Source: Bacteroidales bacterium (GTDB lineage Bacteria > Bacteroidota > Bacteroidia > Bacteroidales > UBA7960). Taken from it: DNA of 64,000 bases. Positions 42,428 through 50,705 of this stretch are shown here, one piece after another. Every line of letters begins with the position of its first letter. Positions within the stretch are counted from its first letter, which is position 1. Made by a program: the position numbers and the translations under genes. Location: assembly GCA_035477775.1 (NCBI GenBank), contig DATIKH010000004.1:1009-65008 (forward strand), in the 5' to 3' direction. Below the pieces are notes generated by a model. That model searched no databases. It had not been told where the DNA came from and was given only the letters and a program-made list of their open reading frames with translations.

Positions 42428-42516
42428 GAGCATTATTTTGCCAAGGCTGCGACCAGAATGATAACTTTACAAATTTATTCTAATTGAGCCTGTCGAAGTT
42501 AAAACAGACCAAAATA

Positions 42517-44055
42517 ATGTTCGAACAAACTTTTAAAAATATTGACGATATACTTCACAAAGACGCGGGTTGCGGCAGTGAATTGGACTATGTGGAGCAA
42601 ACCTCTTGGATTTTGTTCCTCAAATACTTGGACGATTTGGAGCGTGACCGTGCCACGGCAGCCGAATTGACAGGGAAAACCTACACGCCGATTATTGACA
42701 TTGATTACCGTTGGACAAAATGGGCTGCACCAAAGATACGACGAACTCAGCCTTCGAAAAACGGAAAGGCCACTGAGCGTGTCGAAGTGGACCATAATGC
42801 ACTTACAGGCGATGACCTTACCGACTTTGTAAACAACAAACTGTTTCCTTACCTCAAAAAGTTTAAGACGAGGGCCGAGAGTGCGGACACCATTGAATAC
42901 AAGATTGGCGAGATTTTCAGCGAACTGAAAAACCGCATACAAAGCGGTTACAATTTGCGTGAAGTGATTAACCGCATTGATGAGTTGCGTTTCCGAACCC
43001 ATGCGGAAAAGCACGAAATGAGCCACCTGTATGAAGACAAAATCAAGAATATGGGCAATGCAGGGCGAAACGGTGGCGAATATTACACACCCCGACCGCT
43101 CATTACCACCATTGTAAAAGTGGTTGCCCCAAAAATTGGCGACAAAATTTATGACGGTGCATGCGGTTCGGCAGGTTTCCTTTGCGAAGCGTTCGACTAC
43201 CTGAAAAACCGCCCTTCGGCAGGCTCAGGGAGCGGTTTATCTACCAAAGAAACCGAGATACTGCAAAAACGCACATTTTACGGCAAAGAGAAAAAATCGC
43301 TGGCTTACATTATCGGCATTATGAATATGATTTTGCATGGTGTGGAAGCACCAAACATCATACATACCAACACGCTTGCCGAAAACCTTGCCGACATACA
43401 GGAAAAAGACCGTTACGATGTGGTGCTTGCCAATCCGCCATTTGGTGGAAAGGAACGTGCCGAAGTGCAACAAAACTTCCCCATAAAAACCGGCGAAACC
43501 GCTTCGCTCTTTTTGCAGCACTTTATTAAAATACTGAAAGCGGGTGGCAAAGCAGGTGTGGTAATTAAAAACACCTTTTTGAGCAATACCGACAATGCAA
43601 CGGTTGCTATTCGTAAAACTTTACTGGAAAGTTGCAATCTGCACACCGTGTTGGATTTGCCCGGTGGCACTTTTACCGGCGCTGGTGTAAAAACCGTGGT
43701 GCTGTTTTTTGAAAAAGGCAAGCCCACGCAAAAGGTTTGGTTTTACCAGTTGAACCTAGACCGCAATTTGGGCAAAATCAATCCACTCAACGAAAACGAT
43801 TTGGCTGATTTTCTATCACTTTACGCTTCGAGAGCCTCAGGGTCCGAAGGTCCCGAAACCGAAAACTCTTGGAATGTGGACGTACGGCCCCTGAGCCTGC
43901 CGAAGGGGACCGAAGCCACCTACGACCTGAGCGTAAAGAACCCGAACAAAAAAGAAGAGGTTCGGCTACGCTCACCACACGAGATATTGGAAGAAATGAA
44001 AGCATTGGATGAAGAAAGTGCAGAAATCCTTAACTCAATTTTAGAACTGATATGA
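42517..44055 (+). CDS. hsdM: Type I restriction-modification system, DNA methyltransferase subunit
   Basis: ORF 42484..44055 with an ATG at 42517. It has the HsdM N-domain, SAM motif I DGACGSAGFL and catalytic motif IV NPPFGG. It overlaps hsdS by 4 nt. Confidence 0.93.
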   Translation: MFEQTFKNIDDILHKDAGCGSELDYVEQTSWILFLKYLDDLERDRATAAELTGKTYTPIIDIDYRWTKWAAPKIRRTQPSKNGKATERVEVDHNALTGDDLTDFVNNKLFPYLKKFKTRAESADTIEYKIGEIFSELKNRIQSGYNLREVINRIDELRFRTHAEKHEMSHLYEDKIKNMGNAGRNGGEYYTPRPLITTIVKVVAPKIGDKIYDGACGSAGFLCEAFDYLKNRPSAGSGSGLSTKETEILQKRTFYGKEKKSLAYIIGIMNMILHGVEAPNIIHTNTLAENLADIQEKDRYDVVLANPPFGGKERAEVQQNFPIKTGETASLFLQHFIKILKAGGKAGVVIKNTFLSNTDNATVAIRKTLLESCNLHTVLDLPGGTFTGAGVKTVVLFFEKGKPTQKVWFYQLNLDRNLGKINPLNENDLADFLSLYASRASGSEGPETENSWNVDVRPLSLPKGTEATYDLSVKNPNKKEEVRLRSPHEILEEMKALDEESAEILNSILELI

Positions 44056-45260
44056 AAAATTGGGTAGTAAAAAAATTAGGTGAAGTTTATGATGTCAGAG
44101 ATGGCACTCACGATTCTCCGAGATACGTAAATGAGGGATATGCTCTAATTACCTCAAAAAATTTGAAGAATGATAGTTTGAACTATGATAATGTAAACTA
44201 CATAACCGAACAAGATTACATTAATATCAATAAGAGAAGTAAAGTTGATGTAGGTGATGTATTGTTTGCAATGATTGGAACAATTGGAAATCCTATTGTG
44301 ATAAAAGATGAACCAGATTTTGCAATAAAGAATGTGGCACTTTTAAAAGTGCCTGAAAATCAAAACAGCTATTTCTTAAAGTATTATTTGGATTCAAGCC
44401 TTGTAATAGACAAAATGTCAAGAGATGCTAAGGGAGCTACACAAAAATTTGTTGGCTTGGGCTATCTTAGAAATTTTGAAATCCCCCTTCCCCCACTCCC
44501 CGAGCAACAACGCATTGTTTCCATATTAGATGCAGCCTTTGCGTTGATTTCGAGAGCCTCAATCAACGCTGAAAGGTGCCTGAGCCTGTCGAAGGCACTT
44601 TTTGAAAGCTATTTGCAGCTTGCCCTGAGCCCGGTCGAAGGGGGGGTGTTTGGTGGTTCGACAGGCTCACCAACCAAACGGGATGGGTGGGAAGAGAAGA
44701 CAATCGGAGAAATCGGAAGTCCCAAAATGTGCAAGCGAATTTTTAAAGAGCAAACCACAGCAGTAGGTGAAATTCCATTTTATAAAATCGGCACTTTCGA
44801 GAAGGAGCCAGATGCTTACATTTCAAAAGAAATTTATGATGAATTCCGTGCAAAATATTCATTTCCTAAAAAAGGTGATGTTTTGATTTCTGCATCAGGA
44901 ACAATCGGGAGACGGGTAAGATATGATGGTGAGCCAGCATATTTCCAAGACTCAAATATTGTGTGGATTGAAAATGATGAGAAACAAGTTTCAAATGATT
45001 TTCTCTATGAATTTTATGGTACTTGCAATTGGGGTTCAACAAAAGGTGCAACGATTTCAAGACTGTATAATGACAATTTAAAAAGCATTAAAATCAGTTT
45101 CCCAAAATCTAAAGAAGCCCAACAAATTATCGTCCGCCAATTAAATGCCCTGCGAGCCGAAACGCAAAAGCTGGAAGCCATTTATCAGCAAAAACTTTTA
45201 AATTTGGAAGAGCTGAAAAAGAGCATATTGCAAAAGGCGTTTAGGGGAGAATTGAATTAA
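44052..45260 (+). CDS. hsdS: Type I restriction-modification system, specificity subunit
   Basis: 402 aa with two target-recognition domains separated by conserved helices (LPPLPEQQRIVSILD... and ...EAQQIIVRQLNAL...LKKSILQKAFRGEL). Confidence 0.92.
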   Translation: MKNWVVKKLGEVYDVRDGTHDSPRYVNEGYALITSKNLKNDSLNYDNVNYITEQDYININKRSKVDVGDVLFAMIGTIGNPIVIKDEPDFAIKNVALLKVPENQNSYFLKYYLDSSLVIDKMSRDAKGATQKFVGLGYLRNFEIPLPPLPEQQRIVSILDAAFALISRASINAERCLSLSKALFESYLQLALSPVEGGVFGGSTGSPTKRDGWEEKTIGEIGSPKMCKRIFKEQTTAVGEIPFYKIGTFEKEPDAYISKEIYDEFRAKYSFPKKGDVLISASGTIGRRVRYDGEPAYFQDSNIVWIENDEKQVSNDFLYEFYGTCNWGSTKGATISRLYNDNLKSIKISFPKSKEAQQIIVRQLNALRAETQKLEAIYQQKLLNLEELKKSILQKAFRGELN

Positions 45261-45262
45261 TT

Positions 45263-46378
45263 ATGACAAAAAAAGATTTTCATAAGTCAAAATTCGACAA
45301 AGGCACTCAGTCTAAGCTTGAGGTATTCAAGGAGTACTTCAAAGAAAGTTTTCCTGTTTTCCTTCACAGTCCTTACTTCGAAGAGATTTTTATTTACGAT
45401 TTCTTTGCCGGCCAAGGCTTAAATAGCAAAAAAGAGTTTGGTACGGCATTTAATATTCTAAACGAAATTAAGCCTTATTGCAAAGACATAAGAAAAAGCA
45501 CGAAAAAGGTTTATATTATTCTGAATGACAAAGGGGAGTCTGATGTTTTAAAGTCAAATGTGTCAGACTTTTTCAATTCCTGTAAAACAAATTGTCAAGG
45601 AGAGTGTGTGTTTGCATTGAATAATAACCTAATTGTAAAATCTGAAGATTTTGAAACCTATTTCCCAAAGATATACCCTGCTATGCTTGGTAGGAAAAGA
45701 GCAGCAAAACTCTTGTATTTAGATCCTTTCAAATTTGTTATAGATAGCGATTTGTTCAATAAATTGATAAATATTCCTTCGGCAGATTTTATCAGTTTTA
45801 TGCCTTCATTCTTTTTAAGACGTTTCCCCGATGTGTCCGCTTTTAATAAATATATCAATACCAGGGAAATTGATTTTAAAAAATCACGACCTGAACATTG
45901 CCACCGGGTTATTGCCAATTATTTCAATACACTTGTTCCTCCAGATAAGGAATATTATATGGGTTGCTTTTCCATAAGGAAAGATTCTGGATATAATGGT
46001 CTCCTATTTGGGAGTAATCATACTTTGGGTGCTGAAAAATTCCAGAAAGTATGTTGGAAAATTGATGAACTAACAGGCGAAGCCGATTACAATATTGACA
46101 GAGAGTTAACCTATGACAAACAGGGAGTTCTTTTTGAGGAAGCGAGAATTCCTACAAAAATCAAACAATTCAACACTGACTTAGAAAACCAGATTATTCA
46201 GGGCAAAATAAAAACTGATATTGATTCATACAAGTTTGCACTTAAAAATCGCTGTTTAGTTAAACATTCCGCTGATAAGTTAAAAGAGTTAATGAAAGAA
46301 GCGAAAATCGAGGAGTTTAAAATAACTAACAACGATATTCACAAAATTAAAATAGCCACACAAATAAAATTAAAGTAG
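45263..46378 (+). CDS. TcmP-like 'three-Cys-motif partner' protein; methyltransferase-like motifs, function unknown
   Basis: 371 aa, starting 2 nt after the hsdS stop. It contains YDFFAGQG (res 45-52, resembling SAM-MTase motif I DxFxGxG) and YLDPF (res 152-156, resembling motif IV and the Trm1 DPFG). The family name is recalled from NCBI/TIGRFAM naming and was not searched. Confidence 0.7.
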   Translation: MTKKDFHKSKFDKGTQSKLEVFKEYFKESFPVFLHSPYFEEIFIYDFFAGQGLNSKKEFGTAFNILNEIKPYCKDIRKSTKKVYIILNDKGESDVLKSNVSDFFNSCKTNCQGECVFALNNNLIVKSEDFETYFPKIYPAMLGRKRAAKLLYLDPFKFVIDSDLFNKLINIPSADFISFMPSFFLRRFPDVSAFNKYINTREIDFKKSRPEHCHRVIANYFNTLVPPDKEYYMGCFSIRKDSGYNGLLFGSNHTLGAEKFQKVCWKIDELTGEADYNIDRELTYDKQGVLFEEARIPTKIKQFNTDLENQIIQGKIKTDIDSYKFALKNRCLVKHSADKLKELMKEAKIEEFKITNNDIHKIKIATQIKLK

Positions 46379-46380
46379 CT

Positions 46381-47133
46381 ATGGCACACAAGATTGAATG
46401 GACAGAGCAAACATGGAATCCATCGGTTGGTTGTTCAAAAATTAGTTCAGGTTGCCAAAACTGCTATGCAGAATCAATGGCACTTCGTTTACAAGCCATG
46501 AATGTTGATGGGTACGAAAATGGATTTAAGTTTAATATAGTATCTGGCAGATTAAATGAACCTTTTAAGAAGAAAAAACCCAGAGTATTCTTTGTAAACT
46601 CAATGAGTGATATTTTTCATCAAGAGATGCCTGAAGAATACTTAAATAGGATTTTTGAAGTAATAGAAAAAACACCAAAGCACACATTTCAGATTTTAAC
46701 AAAGCGCGCCGATAGGATGTATCAGTACCTTTCAAAGCGAGAAATTCCTAAAAATATTTGGTTAGGAGTAACTGTTGAAAACAGAAAAGAAGGTTTACCA
46801 AGAATTGACAAACTAAGACAATTACTAGCTACAGTGCTATTTCTATCGTTAGAACCCTTACTTGAAGATTTGGGTGAAATTAACTTACATAATATCGACT
46901 GGGTAATTGTTGGAGGTGAAAGCGGAAACAAAGCTCGCCCTATGGACAAAGAATGGGTACTCAGTATCAAAAAGCAATGTGAAAAGCAGAATGTTGCCTT
47001 TTTCTTTAAGCAATGGGGAACTTGGGGTGCAGACAAAGTGAAACGTAATAAAAGACTAAATGGCAAAGAGCTAAATGGCAAAATTTGGCATCAGTTTCCT
47101 GAAGTAATTGAGAAGCAATTTGCTGTCGTTTAA
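46381..47133 (+). CDS. DUF5131 / phage Gp37-Gp68 family protein with an N-terminal three-Cys motif
   Basis: 250 aa, starting 2 nt after the upstream stop. It contains WNPSVGCSKISSGCQNCYA (Cys18-x6-Cys25-x2-Cys28), FVNSMSDIFH, QILTKR, SLEPLLE and DWVIVGGESG. Confidence 0.8.
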   Translation: MAHKIEWTEQTWNPSVGCSKISSGCQNCYAESMALRLQAMNVDGYENGFKFNIVSGRLNEPFKKKKPRVFFVNSMSDIFHQEMPEEYLNRIFEVIEKTPKHTFQILTKRADRMYQYLSKREIPKNIWLGVTVENRKEGLPRIDKLRQLLATVLFLSLEPLLEDLGEINLHNIDWVIVGGESGNKARPMDKEWVLSIKKQCEKQNVAFFFKQWGTWGADKVKRNKRLNGKELNGKIWHQFPEVIEKQFAVV

Positions 47134-47304
47134 TTTTCAGAAAAATAATGAGTAAAACACAAGCAAAATCATTCCGCCATTCGGCAGCTTTTGGCAAACG
47201 CATAGTGTATTACGTTATAGGCTTAATGCTTAAAGATGGTTTGGATGTGTAATTACCAATGTTAGATGATGATGCAATAGATGCCGTTGTAAAAAAACCG
47301 ACAA

Positions 47305-48197
47305 CCACAACGCAACTCCGAAGGAGGTGACAAGGTTATAGAAACAAGAATAATCAACCACAACGCAACCCCGTAGGGATGACAAGAATATTGAAAAAAA
47401 TGACGTACGAATAAAAAACCCCGAAGGGATGATATGATTATAATGATGAACATACCATCAGCCATAAAACCCCGAAGGGGTGAAATAAATTCCACCCCTT
47501 CGGGGTTAGGGGATATGCACCATATTGATTTCTATAATCATAACACCCCTTCGGGGTTAAAATCATAGCATTATGGCAGGCACATTTTCACAAATTTATA
47601 TTCAATACGTTTTTGCCGTAAAAGGTCGTGAAAACCTATTGCTAAAGCCGTGGTGTGATGAGGTGTTTAAATATATGGCAGGCATTATCAAGGGAAAAAA
47701 TCAGAAACCACTTATCGTTAATGGTGTTGCAGACCATGTTCATGTTTTTGTGGGTTTAAAACCTGCAATGAGCATTTCGGATTTAGTTCGGGACATCAAA
47801 AACAATTCTTCCAATTTCATCAACGAACAAAAATTCCTGAAGGGAAAATTCTCGTGGCAAGAAGGATACGGTGCATTTTCCTATGCCCATTCGCAAATTG
47901 AGAATGTGTATCAATACATTGCTAATCAGGAAGAACACCATAAGAAGAAATCATTTAAAGTAGAATACCTTGATTTCCTTCAAAAATTTAACATTGAATA
48001 CAACGAAAAATATTTATTTGAATGGGTGGATTAATAATATCACCCCTTCGGGGTTTAATTGACTTTTGGTTTGCATTGAGCTATAATCTTTACATCCCTT
48101 CGGGATTAAAGAAGATAACCGAACACAAACCCCGTAAGGATGGCATTTTTGCAGAAAACGAAATTATATCATTTTAACAACCCCAAAGGGGTGAAAA
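47305..48197 (+). mobile_element. REP-hairpin array surrounding a Y1 transposase gene (REP/RAYT-type unit)
   Basis: Ten copies of a small hairpin (core AACCCCGAAGGGGTGA or its complement). Copies in one orientation are at 47305-335, 47358-386, 47415-433 and 47466-485. Copies at 47492-510 and 47542-560 are inverted. The transposase gene follows, then inverted copies at 48040-058 and 48091-110, then copies at 48127-143 and 48179-197 in the first orientation. Confidence 0.8.
47573..48034 (+). CDS. IS200/IS605-like Y1 (HUH) transposase, REP-associated (RAYT-like)
   Basis: 153 aa with the HUH motif ADHVHVFVG, the catalytic Tyr context VYQYIANQEEHH and the N-terminal FSQIYIQYVFAVKGRE typical of IS200-like TnpA. 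Confidence 0.85.
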   Translation: MAGTFSQIYIQYVFAVKGRENLLLKPWCDEVFKYMAGIIKGKNQKPLIVNGVADHVHVFVGLKPAMSISDLVRDIKNNSSNFINEQKFLKGKFSWQEGYGAFSYAHSQIENVYQYIANQEEHHKKKSFKVEYLDFLQKFNIEYNEKYLFEWVD

Positions 48198-48206
48198 GAT
48201 TATAAA

Positions 48207-50705
48207 ATGAACGAAGCAGAAACCAGAGCTGAACTCATAGACCCAATGCTAAAGGCTTGTGGTTGGGGCGTTGTGGAAGGCTCTAAAATCCTTCGTGAAT
48301 ACAACATAACGCTTGGTAAAATTCAAACAGGCGGTGGTTTCGACTGCCTCACCAACCGCAACCAGGTACGGAGGGGCAAAAGAGAAATTGCCGATTATGT
48401 ATTGGTGTATAAAGGCTTAAAACTAGCTATAATAGAAGCCAAAAGTGATGAATTGGAAGTGAGCGAAGGAGTGATGCAAGCCAAAAAGTATGCACAGAAA
48501 CTTCAATTAGAAACCACTTACAGCACCAACGGTAAAGAGATATACCAAATCTGCATGAAAACAGGCGAAGAAGGTTTGGTTACAGACTTTTTAAGCCCAG
48601 AAAAACTTTGGAATAAAACATACCCGGTGGCTTCGGCAGGCGTTCGTCTGAGCTCAGCCGAAGGCTCAGCCACCGAAGAAGAATGTGCTCGCCTTGAGCT
48701 TGTAGATAGGTGGAGAGAAAAATTTGCCAATGTTCCGTTTGAAGATAAAAGCGGGACTTGGCAACTCAGGTTTTATCAGGAGATTGCAGTTAAGAACTCA
48801 TTGGAAGCTTTATCCAACGGTAAAGAACGCATCTTACTCACCCTTGCCACAGGAACTGGAAAAACCGCAATTGCTTTTCAAATTTCCTGGAAATTGTTTC
48901 AAACCCGTTGGACGGTTCAACAAACTCACCGACCACCGGGGGCTGAGCCTGTGGTAGCCCGAAGACCAAGAATCTTATTTTTAGCCGACCGTAATATATT
49001 AGCAGACCAAGCCTACAATTCATTTTCTGCTTTTCCTGATGATGTTCTGATTCGTATAAAACCAAATGAAATTCGAAATCGTGGCAGAGTCCCAACCAAC
49101 GGAAGTATATTTTTTACCATTTTCCAAACTTTTATGAGTGGAACGGATGAGTTTGGTAAACCTGCACCGTATTTTGGAGAATATCCTGCCGACTATTTTG
49201 ATTTTATCATCATTGACGAGTGCCACCGTGGCGGAGCCAATGACGAAAGCAACTGGCGGGGCATTTTGGAATATTTCAGTCCGGCAGTGCAATTGGGTTT
49301 AACCGCCACACCCAAACGAAAAGACAATGTGGACACTTACCGTTACTTTGGCGAACCAGTTTACATTTATTCGCTGAAAGAAGGCATCAATGATGGTTTT
49401 TTAACGCCATTTAAGGTAAAACGCATTAAAACCACGTTGGACGATTACCGCTATACTTCCGATGATACGATTGTAGAAGGTGAAATTGAAGAAGGCAAGT
49501 TGTATGAAGAAAAAGACTTTAACCGAACTATTGAAATAGTTGAGCGTGAAACAAAACGGGTAAACATATTTTTGGATGAAGCCAACCAAAACGAAAAGGC
49601 AATTATCTTTTGTGCCAATCAAGCACACGCTGCATTGATACGGGATTTGGTCAATCAGGAAAGATTTGAAAGAATTGGAAAATGGGCAAATGGGCAGCGC
49701 CACCCTGAGCTTGTCGAAGGGTATTGTGTTCGTGTAACTGCTAACGATGGCGAAGAGGGCGAAAGATTGTTACGAGAATTTCAGGACAACGAAAAAACAA
49801 TTCCAACCATACTGACTACTTCGCAAAAGCTCTCCACAGGAGTTGATGCAAGGAACATTCGGAATATCGTTTTGCTACGTCCAGTAAATTCAATGATTGA
49901 GTTTAAACAAATCGTTGGTCGTGGCACACGGTTGTTTGACGGTAAGGAGTTTTTTACCATTTACGACTTTGTAGATGCTTACAAGCACTTTTCAGACCCA
50001 GAATGGGACGGTGAGCCAATCGGAGAAGAACCAAAGGAACCTACCTCATATCCAACATCTGAATCGAATGAACCACAAGTGACTTCAGACTCAGGGGAGT
50101 CAACTCTAAAGAAGCAGAAAATAAAAATCAAACTGCGAAACGGAAAAGAGAGAGAAATCAAACACATGGTTTCAACTTCGTTTTGGAGTGCAGATGGCAA
50201 GCCCATTTCAGCAGAAGAATTTTTGAGCAATCTGTTTGGAGAGTTGCCTAAACTTTTCAAAGACGAAGAAGAATTACGGAAACTTTGGAGTAATCCGATG
50301 ACCCGTAGGACTTTATTAGAAAAACTGGACGATGCAGGTTTCCCAAAACCTGATTTACTGACTTTACAAAAGTTGGTTGATATGGAAAAAAGCGACTTGT
50401 ACGATGTTTTGGAATATGTTTTTAATGGCGACTACATAGCAATGACACGAGAAGCAAGAGCAAAGGCAGCCGAAGCGACAATATTTGCCTTACTCAACGA
50501 CAAACAGAAAGAATTTATATCATTCGTCTTGAGCAAGTACATTGAAACAGGCGTTGAAGAACTCGACCAGGAGAAACTTCCAATATTGCTGACAAACAAA
50601 TATCATTCGTTGGAAGATGCTAAAGAAATTTTAGGAGACGTGGCAAACATAAGCCGACTGTTTATAGAATTTCAGGAACATTTGTACAAACAAAAAGTTG
50701 CGTAA
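48207..50705 (+). CDS. hsdR: Type I restriction endonuclease, R subunit
   Basis: 832 aa with the N-terminal nuclease domain (NEAETRAELIDPML...ADYVL...IIEAK), SF2 helicase motifs (TGTGKT, IIDECHRG, TATP, QIVGRGTR) and a C-terminal EcoEI-R-like helical domain. Confidence 0.93.
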   Translation: MNEAETRAELIDPMLKACGWGVVEGSKILREYNITLGKIQTGGGFDCLTNRNQVRRGKREIADYVLVYKGLKLAIIEAKSDELEVSEGVMQAKKYAQKLQLETTYSTNGKEIYQICMKTGEEGLVTDFLSPEKLWNKTYPVASAGVRLSSAEGSATEEECARLELVDRWREKFANVPFEDKSGTWQLRFYQEIAVKNSLEALSNGKERILLTLATGTGKTAIAFQISWKLFQTRWTVQQTHRPPGAEPVVARRPRILFLADRNILADQAYNSFSAFPDDVLIRIKPNEIRNRGRVPTNGSIFFTIFQTFMSGTDEFGKPAPYFGEYPADYFDFIIIDECHRGGANDESNWRGILEYFSPAVQLGLTATPKRKDNVDTYRYFGEPVYIYSLKEGINDGFLTPFKVKRIKTTLDDYRYTSDDTIVEGEIEEGKLYEEKDFNRTIEIVERETKRVNIFLDEANQNEKAIIFCANQAHAALIRDLVNQERFERIGKWANGQRHPELVEGYCVRVTANDGEEGERLLREFQDNEKTIPTILTTSQKLSTGVDARNIRNIVLLRPVNSMIEFKQIVGRGTRLFDGKEFFTIYDFVDAYKHFSDPEWDGEPIGEEPKEPTSYPTSESNEPQVTSDSGESTLKKQKIKIKLRNGKEREIKHMVSTSFWSADGKPISAEEFLSNLFGELPKLFKDEEELRKLWSNPMTRRTLLEKLDDAGFPKPDLLTLQKLVDMEKSDLYDVLEYVFNGDYIAMTREARAKAAEATIFALLNDKQKEFISFVLSKYIETGVEELDQEKLPILLTNKYHSLEDAKEILGDVANISRLFIEFQEHLYKQKVA

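Follow-up and report, generated by a model that had tools for sequence, protein, structure and literature searches.

Analysis of the window, i.e. the whole stretch of 64,000 nucleotides from a Bacteroidales bacterium (contig DATIKH010000004.1), led to a two-gene cassette within a type I restriction-modification (R-M) operon, whose first product, TcmP, turned out to be the swappable module of the pair. Comparisons of related loci at the sequence level revealed that TcmP is hypervariable and exchanged as a discrete allele, while its partner DUF5131 and the flanking genes are conserved. This is the new point of our analysis. The pair as such was already catalogued: judged by profile matches, it belongs to the phage defence candidates PDC-M30 / PDC-M41 of PADLOC, and the proposal of a previous sequence-only reading that it is the best candidate for a new system had to be dropped. 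We assign a probability of roughly one half to the interpretation that the cassette is an obligate two-protein module of the PDC-M30 type, in which TcmP would confer specificity and DUF5131 radical-SAM chemistry on nucleic acid, and which is carried here as a passenger of the R-M operon.

The following features were assigned to the operon:
42484..44055, + strand: hsdM, type I R-M methyltransferase subunit (PF02384 N6_Mtase, E 5.3e-60, plus HsdM_N)
44052..45260, + strand: hsdS, type I specificity subunit with two target-recognition domains (PF01420 Methylase_S in two stretches, E 1.6e-44)
45263..46378, + strand: tcmP, three-Cys-motif partner protein (ATG..TAG, 371 aa; TIGR04474 above cut-off)
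46381..47133, + strand: DUF5131 gene, phage Gp37/Gp68 family (ATG..TAA, 250 aa; PF07505, E 1.5e-104)
47300..48205, transposase 47573-48034 on the + strand: REP-associated IS200-like Y1 transposase (RAYT) insertion (PF01797 Y1_Tnp, E 4.1e-23)
48207..50705, + strand: hsdR, type I restriction subunit of the EcoAI family (NF046051 restrict_EcoAI, 756.8 bits vs cut-off 550; ResIII, EcoEI_R_C)

The gene order in the window is hsdM-hsdS-tcmP-DUF5131-(RAYT)-hsdR, and the host operon is, by its predicted products HsdM, HsdS and HsdR, an intact type I system of the EcoAI family. The true start of hsdM is likely the ATG at 42517, resulting in a protein of 512 aa, a length that gene calling on the identical contig L003 also yielded. 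Four nt (44052-44055) are shared by hsdM and hsdS. Both genes of the pair lie directly 3' of hsdS with 2-nt gaps: the hsdS stop codon TAA (45258-45260) is followed by 'tt' and the tcmP ATG at 45263, the tcmP stop codon TAG (46376-46378) by 'ct' and the DUF5131 ATG at 46381. The two open reading frames, their gaps and all motifs quoted by the sequence-only reading were thereby confirmed. A crude consensus scan did not disclose any terminator-like sites on the + strand between the junctions, and neither an Rfam family nor a tRNA, which might have pointed to an overlooked RNA gene within the operon, was detected within 42-51 kb. The GC content of the pair was 0.33-0.36, compared to 0.44 for the window.

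DUF5131 and hsdR are not adjacent, a separation absent from the sequence-only reading. They are 1.07 kb apart, and the DNA between them contains the IS200-like Y1 transposase (NF033573, 64.7 bits, cut-off 55) along with REP-like hairpins. Some ten hairpins of the sequence AACCCCGAAGGGGTG flank the RAYT gene on both sides and in both orientations; the sequence CCCCTTCGGGGT gave 6 matches, all inside the 47300..48205 stretch, vs 0.25 expected. The insertion is missing in the orthologous operons of three related loci (L007, L008 and L010). It is a secondary event, separate from the TcmP-DUF5131 pair.

The family calls of the sequence-only reading were borne out for both proteins, at scores well beyond chance. 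TcmP scored 77.9 bits with TIGR04474 (cut-off 53), residues 15-267 covering model positions 3-262 of 263, and PADLOC PDC-M30A matched nearly the whole protein (E 8.8e-107; residues 1-368 on model positions 1-364 of 368). At the C-terminus, PF22560 GMT-wHTH was found with an E value of 1.4e-4, which is under the gathering score. We also checked whether the name GMT-wHTH refers to Gamma-Mobile-Trio elements, an origin for which no support emerged. In the AlphaFold2 model (pLDDT 89, pTM 0.88), a predicted class I SAM-methyltransferase (MTase) fold comprises approximately aa 10-270, followed by a C-terminal winged helix-turn-helix (wHTH) at about aa 277-350. All significant Foldseek matches of this model in PDB and BFVD were class I MTases, as the MTase fold suggested for gene 1 had implied. 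The closest one was TYW4 (5.7e-7), followed by COMT-like proteins, KsgA and TFB1M; the nearest folds are thus small-molecule, protein-carboxyl and RNA methyltransferases, with DNA methyltransferases not among them. The motifs YDFFAGQG (45-52) and YLDPF (152-156) occupy fitting places in the model, motif I (D46-F-F48-A-G50-Q-G52) after strand 41-46 and D154 after strand 147-153. F48, G50, G52 and D154 are invariant among relatives down to 16% identity; the same holds in the family for [DE]-x-F-x-G-x-G (motif I) and D-[PQ]-x-G (motif IV). In its modelled fold, motif I and motif IV, TcmP conforms to the class I SAM-dependent MTases. The motif IV consensus D-[PQ]-[FYHN]-G (here D-P-F-K) has no PP dipeptide, and the motif (D/N/S)-P-P-(Y/F/W) of DNA amino-methyltransferases (N6A/N4C) was not found in TcmP. 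Moreover, hhalign did not reveal a relation of the TcmP profile to the operon's own HsdM. An Fe-S or Zn site formed by C73, C107 and C115 was considered and rejected as a family feature, since distant TcmPs do not possess these cysteines.

DUF5131 gave 349.3 bits with PF07505 (cut-off 28.9; residues 4-240 on model positions 3-243 of 243) and corresponds to PDC-M30B/M41B (PDC-M30B, E 5.7e-114). Its N-terminus WNPSVGCSKISSGCQNCYA harbors C18, C25 and C28 in the arrangement C-x6-C-x2-C, and the sequences FVNSMSDIFH and DWVIVGGESG reside at 71-80 and 173-182. In alignments of 40 and 63 homologues, the three cysteines and the blocks FVNSMSD-F-H, Q-x-LTKR, S-x-EPL and VGGESG were invariant. The canonical radical SAM motif C-x3-C-x2-C was therefore not present, the spacing being C-x6-C-x2-C throughout. 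As accepted members of the superfamily also comprise proteins with non-canonical cysteine spacings, radical SAM chemistry is compatible with the DUF5131 motif. Residues 13-211 matched TIGR04471, 'radical SAM mobile pair protein A' (E 1.4e-31), with a score of 109.7 that is far under the equivalog cut-off of 355, so the protein is not a member of this family. RadicalSAM.org places DUF5131 among the radical SAM families, in Megacluster-5-2 (PMC9477430). The AlphaFold2 model (pLDDT 82.8) displays alternating beta/alpha elements. With Foldseek, no match at E <= 1e-3 was obtained; lipoyl synthase (LIAS, 1.6e-2) and spore photoproduct lyase (SPL, 1.8e-2, TMq 0.49) were mixed with generic TIM barrels. 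The model appears to be a partial barrel, weakly closest to these two enzymes. Together these indirect indications point to a radical-SAM-superfamily-like enzyme, in keeping with the Fe-S enzyme previously proposed for gene 2. Sequence and profile searches of the PDB did not retrieve a solved relative of TcmP or DUF5131.

To study the context of the pair, 80 loci from 80 species were compared for adjacency and 79 related loci for R-M neighbours. DUF5131 directly adjoined TcmP in 78 of the 80 loci, most commonly with a 4-nt ATGA overlap. Rosetta-stone fusions were absent from the best 150 TcmP representatives (all 211-395 aa) and from the DUF5131 matches listed. An R-M gene was located within four genes of the pair in 30 of the 79 loci (17 type I, 11 type IIG with PLD-SNF2, 3 Dcm), which substantiated the suspected link to R-M systems across genomes; as truncation affects 34 loci, these counts are minimum values. 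In eight loci, the pair (TD) was enclosed by type I genes on both sides, in one of three slots: M-S-[TD]-R, M-[TD]-S or R-[TD]-S. A recognisable R-M neighbour was lacking in more than half of the 79 loci, and many adjoined housekeeping genes, the flanks being heterogeneous. In two genomes, the pair was inserted into the dcw cell-division cluster between murE and mraY. There and in the slots of type I operons, only 2-5 nt separate it from the unrelated conserved genes.

Relatives were confirmed in 177 genomes of many phyla by a pattern-based scan of 185,579 species genomes. The pair was also found in a temperate Gordonia phage (gp44/gp45), on plasmid pCAR1, on Leptospira p74, where a type ISP enzyme is encoded directly upstream, and on viral contigs; clinical megaplasmids of Pseudomonas carry members of the family, too. 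The pair of phage Bosnia lies between the integrase and the immunity repressor, which is the place of the proven defence genes 43/44 in Gordonia phage CarolAnn. The products of the latter do not belong to the same family but are RexAB-like (membrane protein plus DUF4747). Many phage DUF5131 proteins are longer and occur without any TcmP, indicating that the chemistry of the DUF5131 family does not strictly depend on TcmP. The data demonstrate the pairing of TcmP and DUF5131, their association with R-M systems and mobile genetic elements (MGEs), and their horizontal spread.

The variability of TcmP was most apparent from orthologous operons. Between the window and locus L084, HsdM (75%), DUF5131 (76%) and HsdR (64%) were well conserved, whereas HsdS and TcmP shared only 32% and 38% identical residues. 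The same was seen in the dcw cluster (L021 vs L034), where TcmP was 36% identical, compared to 73% for MurE, 78% for DUF5131 and 78.5% for MraY. At the DNA level, the identity broke off precisely where tcmP begins and ends: it dropped to 0.4-0.6 inside this gene only, and as soon as the DUF5131 gene started it was back at 0.8-0.9. Locus pairs whose DUF5131 proteins were 80-90% identical showed a bimodal distribution of TcmP identities, with 22 pairs at 30-40%, 35 at 60-100% and only three between. One locus (L038) even harbored two very different tcmP genes around a single DUF5131 gene, and in PADLOC several TcmP families share one common DUF5131 family. Thus, with its alleles replaced beside conserved DUF5131 and flanking genes, TcmP behaves like HsdS, which is only 31-39% identical across otherwise conserved orthologous operons. 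The variation is independent of HsdS, since in other orthologous operons TcmP was 76-82% identical where HsdS was 31-38%. The hypervariability of TcmP would also be compatible with a subunit that senses phage proteins or is targeted by phage inhibitors, instead of one that confers specificity for DNA sequences.

In our preferred interpretation, the pair would ride as a passenger within the EcoAI-type R-M operon and be co-transcribed with it. DUF5131 would be the conserved catalytic subunit, a radical enzyme with a site-differentiated [4Fe-4S] cluster and SAM on an SPL-related partial barrel, and TcmP the variable SAM-binding subunit whose MTase fold and wHTH choose what the complex acts on, as HsdS does. 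We infer complex formation of the two proteins as well as the Fe-S/SAM radical chemistry of DUF5131. The target would be a nucleic acid, most likely DNA, and the role would lie in genetic conflict, either as anti-phage/anti-MGE defence or as self/non-self marking. A more specific proposal, which we regard as quite improbable, is a self-contained restriction-like immune enzyme belonging to a new chemical class. TcmP would pick the target and might also methylate self DNA, while DUF5131 would damage or hypermodify unmarked nucleic acid by means of a 5'-deoxyadenosyl radical instead of hydrolysis. Such an enzyme would account for one conserved DUF5131 working with TcmP alleles that are ~35% identical, for two tcmP genes per DUF5131 gene in some loci, for a pair functioning alone in many genomes, and for its clustering with, and nesting inside, other R-M systems.

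Alternatively, the pair might modify nucleic acids on its own without a restriction partner, leaving an unusual mark on DNA or RNA. Such a module would serve the phages, plasmids and islands that carry it to evade restriction in new hosts or to tune expression. The combination of an MTase fold with a radical SAM enzyme is typical of writers in RNA and natural-product modification pathways. The occurrence of DUF5131 in 178 of 50,697 phage records and in 434 of 72,556 plasmids (163 of them conjugative) is consistent with this idea, as are the integrases adjoining the pair on pCAR1 and in phage Bosnia. We nevertheless consider it unlikely, because the TcmP subfamily studied here is very rare in viruses (none of the 50,697 phage records, and six loci among 2.9 million viral contigs), genes for a reader or an eraser do not recur near the pair, and neither embedding in host R-M operons nor the turnover of discrete TcmP alleles would be expected for a broad anti-restriction writer. 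A guard or back-up of the adjacent R-M system following the logic of PrrC is, in our opinion, distinctly unlikely. It would stay silent until a phage anti-restriction factor, possibly a DNA mimic, a peptide inhibitor or a SAM-degrading enzyme, disables the R-M enzyme, and might then damage host or phage RNA or DNA, leading to abortive infection. The co-transcribed position between hsdS and hsdR, SAM-type sites in both proteins and neighbours that are specifically SAM-using, MTase-containing restriction enzymes (types I, ISP and IIG) suit this role, and a hypervariable TcmP would make a plausible arms-race sensor. On the other hand, neither protein is homologous to PrrC or another known Abi effector, and the variation of TcmP follows neither HsdS nor the type of R-M system. 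As at least 49 of the 79 loci lack a recognisable R-M partner nearby, the dedicated physical guarding of one R-M complex is not the general mechanism.

The tight insertion of the pair between unrelated conserved genes, in three type I slots as well as between murE and mraY, its heterogeneous flanks and the resolvase or integrase neighbours in seven loci could also be taken as signs of a selfish mobile cassette, addiction- or homing-like, for which R-M operons are tolerated sites without shared function. The name 'radical SAM mobile pair' of the related NCBIfam family points in the same direction. That TcmP and DUF5131 contain no transposase, recombinase or nuclease domain, and that terminal repeats were not evident at the two junctions read (hsdS/tcmP and tcmP/DUF5131), makes this very improbable to us. 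Furthermore, the insertion in the dcw cluster is an old one that was passed on vertically, its flanks and DUF5131 being 73-78% identical between the two genomes, and the R-M enrichment is far above what we would infer for random tolerated sites, an expectation that is not a computed figure. Hardly credible is a housekeeping pair that modifies RNA or a cofactor and plays no part in conflict, even though the closest structures of TcmP are tRNA, rRNA and small-molecule methyltransferases, two loci reside in the dcw operon and many others have housekeeping flanks. The patchy distribution (177 of the 185,579 species genomes in the pattern-based scan), the spread across phyla, the low GC content, the presence in phages and on plasmids and the swapping of alleles all argue against it.

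Should the pair work as an immune or modification module, it would represent the first radical SAM-type enzyme steered by an exchangeable subunit with MTase fold, and would extend restriction-like systems by a new chemistry. With 2,171 TcmP clusters at 50% identity and, as a lower bound, more than 8,000 DUF5131 clusters matched, the family is sizeable. The statement that neither family has an experimentally defined function agreed with the literature searched, which contained no experimental study of DUF5131 or TcmP but only mentions in annotation tables, the RadicalSAM.org list and the PADLOC preprint. Taken as a whole, the sequence-only reading stood with regard to both families, the MTase fold of gene 1, the radical-SAM-like nature of gene 2, the slot and the R-M link, and fell with regard to the newness of the system; the nucleic-acid target and the coupling to the type I enzyme that it put forward are putative.

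Compared to known proteins, DUF5131 resembles the SPL-like branch of radical SAM enzymes in its N-terminal three-Cys motif and, weakly, in the putative beta/alpha partial barrel of its model. Its Megacluster-5-2 is placed beside that of SPL (5-3) by RadicalSAM.org, and SPL, which acts on DNA, gave the top TM-score (0.49). Differences from SPL are the C-x6-C-x2-C spacing, the absence of an aromatic residue before the third cysteine and a Foldseek E value of only ~0.02; at the sequence level, DUF5131 matched no solved radical SAM enzyme. TIGR04471, to which DUF5131 is homologous, likewise belongs to a sporadically occurring two-gene pair. Its partner is a second radical SAM protein, going by the family names.

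PrrC is the textbook example of a defence gene embedded in type I operons, and on this established knowledge the comparison of the slot between hsdS and hsdR with that of prrC, made by the sequence-only reading, is supported by the gene order in the window. The PrrC of E. coli EcoprrI (prrABCD, type Ic) is also a co-expressed passenger between hsdS and hsdR. However, PrrC is one protein with an ABC-ATPase and a nuclease, unrelated to TcmP or DUF5131 in sequence and domains; Pfam, NCBIfam and PADLOC gave no match to its ABC-type ATPase N-domain or its nuclease C-domain for either protein. In addition, TcmP and DUF5131 frequently occur as a pair where no type I system is present. A parallel to TcmP is the shuffling of HsdS and its target-recognition domains. 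Both are hypervariable, swapped as discrete alleles within a conserved operon and work for a catalytic partner that is itself conserved: HsdS and TcmP were ~32-38% identical in the very operons in which HsdM, DUF5131 and HsdR were 64-76% identical. As TcmP possesses an MTase fold and a wHTH but not the target-recognition domains of HsdS, this likeness is one of analogy only.

Both the DUF5131 and the TcmP models of Pfam/NCBIfam were matched above their cut-offs, with adjacency and the three-Cys motif present, and the TIGRFAMs/NCBIfam name for TcmP already describes a pair. The family definitions carry no function; the subfamily found here has the additional TcmP residues C73, C107 and C115. 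In the preprint by Payne, Hughes, Fineran and Jackson, which names PrrC as the typical gene embedded in type I systems, the cassette was independently picked out among genes that lie within BREX, DISARM or type I systems, and PDC-M30 is a prediction, the text containing no phage assay, mechanism or domain discussion (bioRxiv 10.1101/2024.01.29.577857). Other authors treat PDC systems as unvalidated candidates. In the window, both component HMMs of PDC-M30 were matched nearly end to end by adjacent genes in the same order and without structural difference, so that the pair is a member of PDC-M30 and, within this window, an unremarkable example of a candidate already in the catalogue.

The two genes are passengers in an operon whose flanking genes form an intact type I restriction-modification (R-M) system of the EcoAI family. 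The genes were arranged as follows:

42484-44055, + strand, hsdM (likely true start 42517)
44052-45260, + strand, hsdS, overlapping hsdM by 4 nt
45263-46378, + strand, tcmP, ORF of 371 aa
46381-47133, + strand, DUF5131 gene, ORF of 250 aa
47573-48034, + strand, IS200-like Y1 transposase (RAYT), ORF of 153 aa
48207-50705, + strand, hsdR

The 2-nt gaps reported by the sequence-only reading between hsdS and tcmP and between tcmP and the DUF5131 gene were recovered, the junctions reading TAA-tt-ATG and TAG-ct-ATG, respectively, and all motifs it had quoted were found in the two ORFs. A crude scan of the + strand disclosed no terminator-like site at the operon junctions. The GC content drops along the operon (hsdM 0.46, hsdS 0.38, tcmP 0.33, DUF5131 gene 0.36, hsdR 0.42; window mean 0.44), which suggests that hsdS and the passenger pair have a history different from that of hsdM and hsdR.

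The DUF5131 gene is parted from hsdR by a REPtron-like insertion (47300-48205), which holds the RAYT gene between hairpin units AACCCCGAAGGGGTG, about ten altogether, that lie on both sides of it and occur in either orientation. Near-exact copies of AACCCCGAAGGGGTG occurred six times in the 64-kb window, all within 47300-48205, where 0.25 copies were expected by chance in the window. Since the insertion is not present in three orthologous operons (L007, L008, L010), it is recent. Its presence may break the coupling of hsdR to the genes upstream; it also contains a strong sigma-70-like site (TTGACT-17-TATAAT, 48059-48087).

Both genes had been identified correctly from the sequence, and the feature is real. 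The product of the second gene matches the DUF5131 (phage Gp37/Gp68) family over its full length (PF07505, E 1.5e-104). The C-terminus of TcmP gave a weak match to the GMT-wHTH family (PF22560) under the gathering score, and a precomputed PF22560 match exists for many TcmP homologues. Identical proteins from a Bacteroidales MAG are present in NCBI, named TcmP and Gp37/Gp68. In PADLOC-DB, TcmP is matched by the phage defence candidate (PDC) model PDC-M30A (E 8.8e-107) and the DUF5131 protein by PDC-M30B (E 5.7e-114) and additionally by PDC-M41B. The PDCs come from the work of Payne, Hughes, Fineran and Jackson, who drew them from genes nested within BREX, DISARM and type I R-M systems; their curation table gives the cassette FAM_02405>>FAM_00989 as PDC-M41 with a count of 75, and the pair goes undiscussed in the main text (bioRxiv 10.1101/2024.01.29.577857). 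A later paper termed the PDCs unvalidated. A literature search found no experimental study of the DUF5131 or TcmP family. The proposal of a new system was thus soundly reasoned, but the same prediction had already been published, and the pair is an instance of the unvalidated candidate PDC-M30.

By sequence or profile search, no solved relative of either protein was found. The structural model of TcmP, built from an alignment of 60 sequences, was confident (pLDDT 89, pTM 0.88) and predicts a seven-stranded Rossmann-type core preceded by an N-terminal helix and followed by a helical domain at the C-terminus. Foldseek searches against the PDB returned class I SAM methyltransferases only, led by TYW4 (5.7e-7) and followed by COMT-like enzymes, KsgA and TFB1M; viral models gave the same class. 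TM-scores were modest (0.3-0.38 on the query), so that the predicted fold class is evident while no single nearest relative stands out. Motif I (D46-F-F-A-G-Q-G52) comes after strand 1 and D154 after strand 4, and residues F48, G50, G52 and D154 are invariant even in TcmPs of 16-40% identity. In these distant proteins motif IV reads D-[PQ]-x-G; TcmP motif IV does not match the (D/N/S)PP(Y/F) of DNA amino-methyltransferases, and hhalign found no relation between TcmP and the operon's own HsdM. TcmP has conserved segments (aa 11-30, 41-50, 151-190, 231-280) and variable ones (aa 71-150, 281-371). The subfamily of the window's TcmP possesses three invariant cysteines, one nearly invariant cysteine and an invariant histidine (C73, C107, C115, C264, H214). 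All five are missing from distant TcmPs and might together make up a metal site specific to this subfamily, within the variable insert. In a representative library 2,171 TcmP clusters were obtained at E <= 1e-3; among the best 150 of these, full-length proteins measured about 355-395 aa, shorter ones being fragments.

The DUF5131 model, of fair quality (pLDDT 82.8), shows strands that alternate with helices. Its best PDB matches were weak, comprising human LIAS (1.6e-2) and SPL (1.8e-2; top TM-score 0.49) intermixed with ordinary TIM barrels. The NCBIfam model 'radical SAM mobile pair protein A' matches it at E 1.4e-31, far under the cut-off. C18, C25 and C28 of the three-Cys motif are invariant, as are the blocks FVNSMSD-F-H, Q-x-LTKR, S-x-EPL and VGGESG. 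RadicalSAM.org places DUF5131 among the radical SAM families, as Megacluster-5-2, beside spore photoproduct lyase (SPL) at 5-3 (PMC9477430). Of the suggested combination of an Fe-S enzyme with a methyltransferase-fold partner, the second half agrees with the TcmP model; for the DUF5131 protein, a radical-SAM-like chemistry is judged likely.

To place the pair in its genomic context, a pattern-based scan of 185,579 species genomes was used, which confirmed TcmP relatives in 177 genomes. The best 80 loci were analysed; they belong mostly to Bacteroidota, the others to TM6, Hyphomicrobiales, Oscillospiraceae, Spirochaetota, Akkermansia, Kiritimatiellia, Ignavibacteria, Chlorobiota, Zixibacteria and one archaeal bin. 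The DUF5131 gene directly adjoins tcmP in 78 of the 80, most commonly with a 4-nt overlap. All neighbouring genes were clustered and recurrent clusters annotated. The expected association with R-M systems was borne out: R-M genes lay no more than four genes away in at least 30 of 79 loci (type I subunits in 17, type IIG enzymes in 11, Dcm-type methyltransferases in 3), figures that are lower bounds because 34 loci are incomplete. The type IIG neighbour corresponds to PADLOC REase_MTase_IIG (E 2.3e-299) and is usually accompanied by a PLD-SNF2 helicase. Type I genes occurred on both flanks in eight loci, and the pair occupied the following slots (M, S, R for hsdM, hsdS, hsdR; TD for the pair):

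M-S-TD-R: the window and loci L007, L008, L010 and L084 (Victivallales)
M-TD-S: loci L060 and L079
R-TD-S: loci L080 and L085

A protein of about 490 aa combining AlbA_2 (Schlafen), HATPase_c_4 and wHTH domains was seen as gene +2 in L027, L036, L053, L054 and L057 and at 7670-9157 in L085. AlbA_2/HATPase_c_4 proteins recur in 9-10 loci, often just downstream of the DUF5131 gene, and may represent a third component in some loci or simply one more passenger of R-M islands. Other immediate neighbours were heterogeneous, with many housekeeping genes and, here and there, defence genes (EcoRI, type III, HamA, HEC-01A, PD-T4-6). Two Bacteroidia genomes have the pair in the dcw cell-division cluster, where it separates murE from mraY (L021, 9995-11877; L034, 8361-10252) with spacers of 2-5 nt.

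DUF5131 was also detected in 178 of 50,697 phage records and 434 of 72,556 plasmids. Gordonia phage Bosnia has a genuine pair, gp44 (DUF5131) and gp45 (TcmP, 124.7 bits), which are convergent and flanked by the integrase on one side and the immunity repressor on the other; the pair occurs in Synechococcus phage Ssp-JY39 as well. On the IncP-7 conjugative Pseudomonas plasmid pCAR1 (L095) a site-specific integrase, DUF5131 and TcmP follow each other between IS elements, and on Leptospira biflexa plasmid p74 (L096) a type ISP restriction/modification enzyme directly precedes TcmP and DUF5131. DUF5131 homologues with about 61% identity to that of the window are present on P. aeruginosa megaplasmids. 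The window's TcmP subfamily is almost absent from viruses. Several phages encode a longer solo DUF5131 protein (330-400 aa) with a C-terminal extension and no TcmP within 3 kb, e.g., Mycobacterium phage Sparky gp73 (L097), Sinorhizobium phage phi3LM21 p08 (L088) and Burkholderia phage vB_E192a (L099). Their neighbours are early or DNA-metabolism genes, with DNA methylase genes near in two cases, and the extension might stand in for TcmP.

A new result was that TcmP is the variable, exchangeable member of the pair. Mean identity to the window's proteins was 60% for DUF5131 and 41% for TcmP homologues, the two being loosely correlated (r 0.47). Pairwise comparisons of loci sharing a backbone are given below.

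Protein identities between loci with the same gene order
Window and L084: HsdM 75%, HsdS 32%, TcmP 38%, DUF5131 76%, HsdR 64%
L021 and L034 (dcw loci): MurE 73%, TcmP 36%, DUF5131 78%, MraY 78.5%

Sliding DNA identity between the dcw loci was 0.75-0.8 in murE, fell to 0.4-0.6 exactly across tcmP and rose to 0.8-0.9 as soon as the DUF5131 gene began. Window and L084 exhibited an equal step at 46370, the diverged blocks being hsdS and tcmP. Where DUF5131 proteins were 80-90% identical, TcmP identity was bimodal (22 locus pairs at 30-40%, 35 at 60-100%, three between), which indicates discrete allele replacement, not a faster clock. TcmP also varied independently of HsdS, being 76-82% identical where HsdS was only 31-38% identical.

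These data show that the pair is an obligate, horizontally mobile two-protein module. Its conserved member is an enzyme with a motif of the Fe-S type; the other bears a SAM site and is exchanged as a specificity or sensor subunit would be. The module lodges preferentially within or next to restriction systems that use SAM and contain a methyltransferase, and in mobile elements. For these reasons we favour, at a probability of roughly one half, a role in conflict in which TcmP would direct the DUF5131 chemistry to a nucleic-acid target. We infer radical SAM catalysis from the motifs, DNA from the wHTH and defence from the context. The functional guess made from the sequence, an additional modification or an R-M-coupled effector, was reasonable and is backed in part by the comparative data.

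Other roles appear less probable. That mobile elements use the pair as a stand-alone writer of modifications is possible but rather unlikely; that it guards the neighbouring R-M system in the manner of PrrC is somewhat less likely still, a reading weakened by the many R-M-free loci. There is a slim chance that the pair is a self-contained restriction-like enzyme with radical chemistry, TcmP being the recognition and self-marking subunit. That it is a purely selfish cassette seems improbable, and a housekeeping modification very improbable.

The remaining interest of the pair lies in its chemistry and in the allele swapping of TcmP, a pattern that makes the specificity-subunit hypothesis directly testable. 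PADLOC's division into several 'A' families with one common 'B' family reflects this pattern. In two Flavobacteriaceae loci (L038, 9995-12982; L045), two tcmP genes surround one DUF5131 gene in the order tcmP (+), DUF5131 (-), tcmP (-). The two of L038 are very unlike each other, being 39% and 20% identical to that of the window, and such double tcmP genes call to mind spare hsdS genes.
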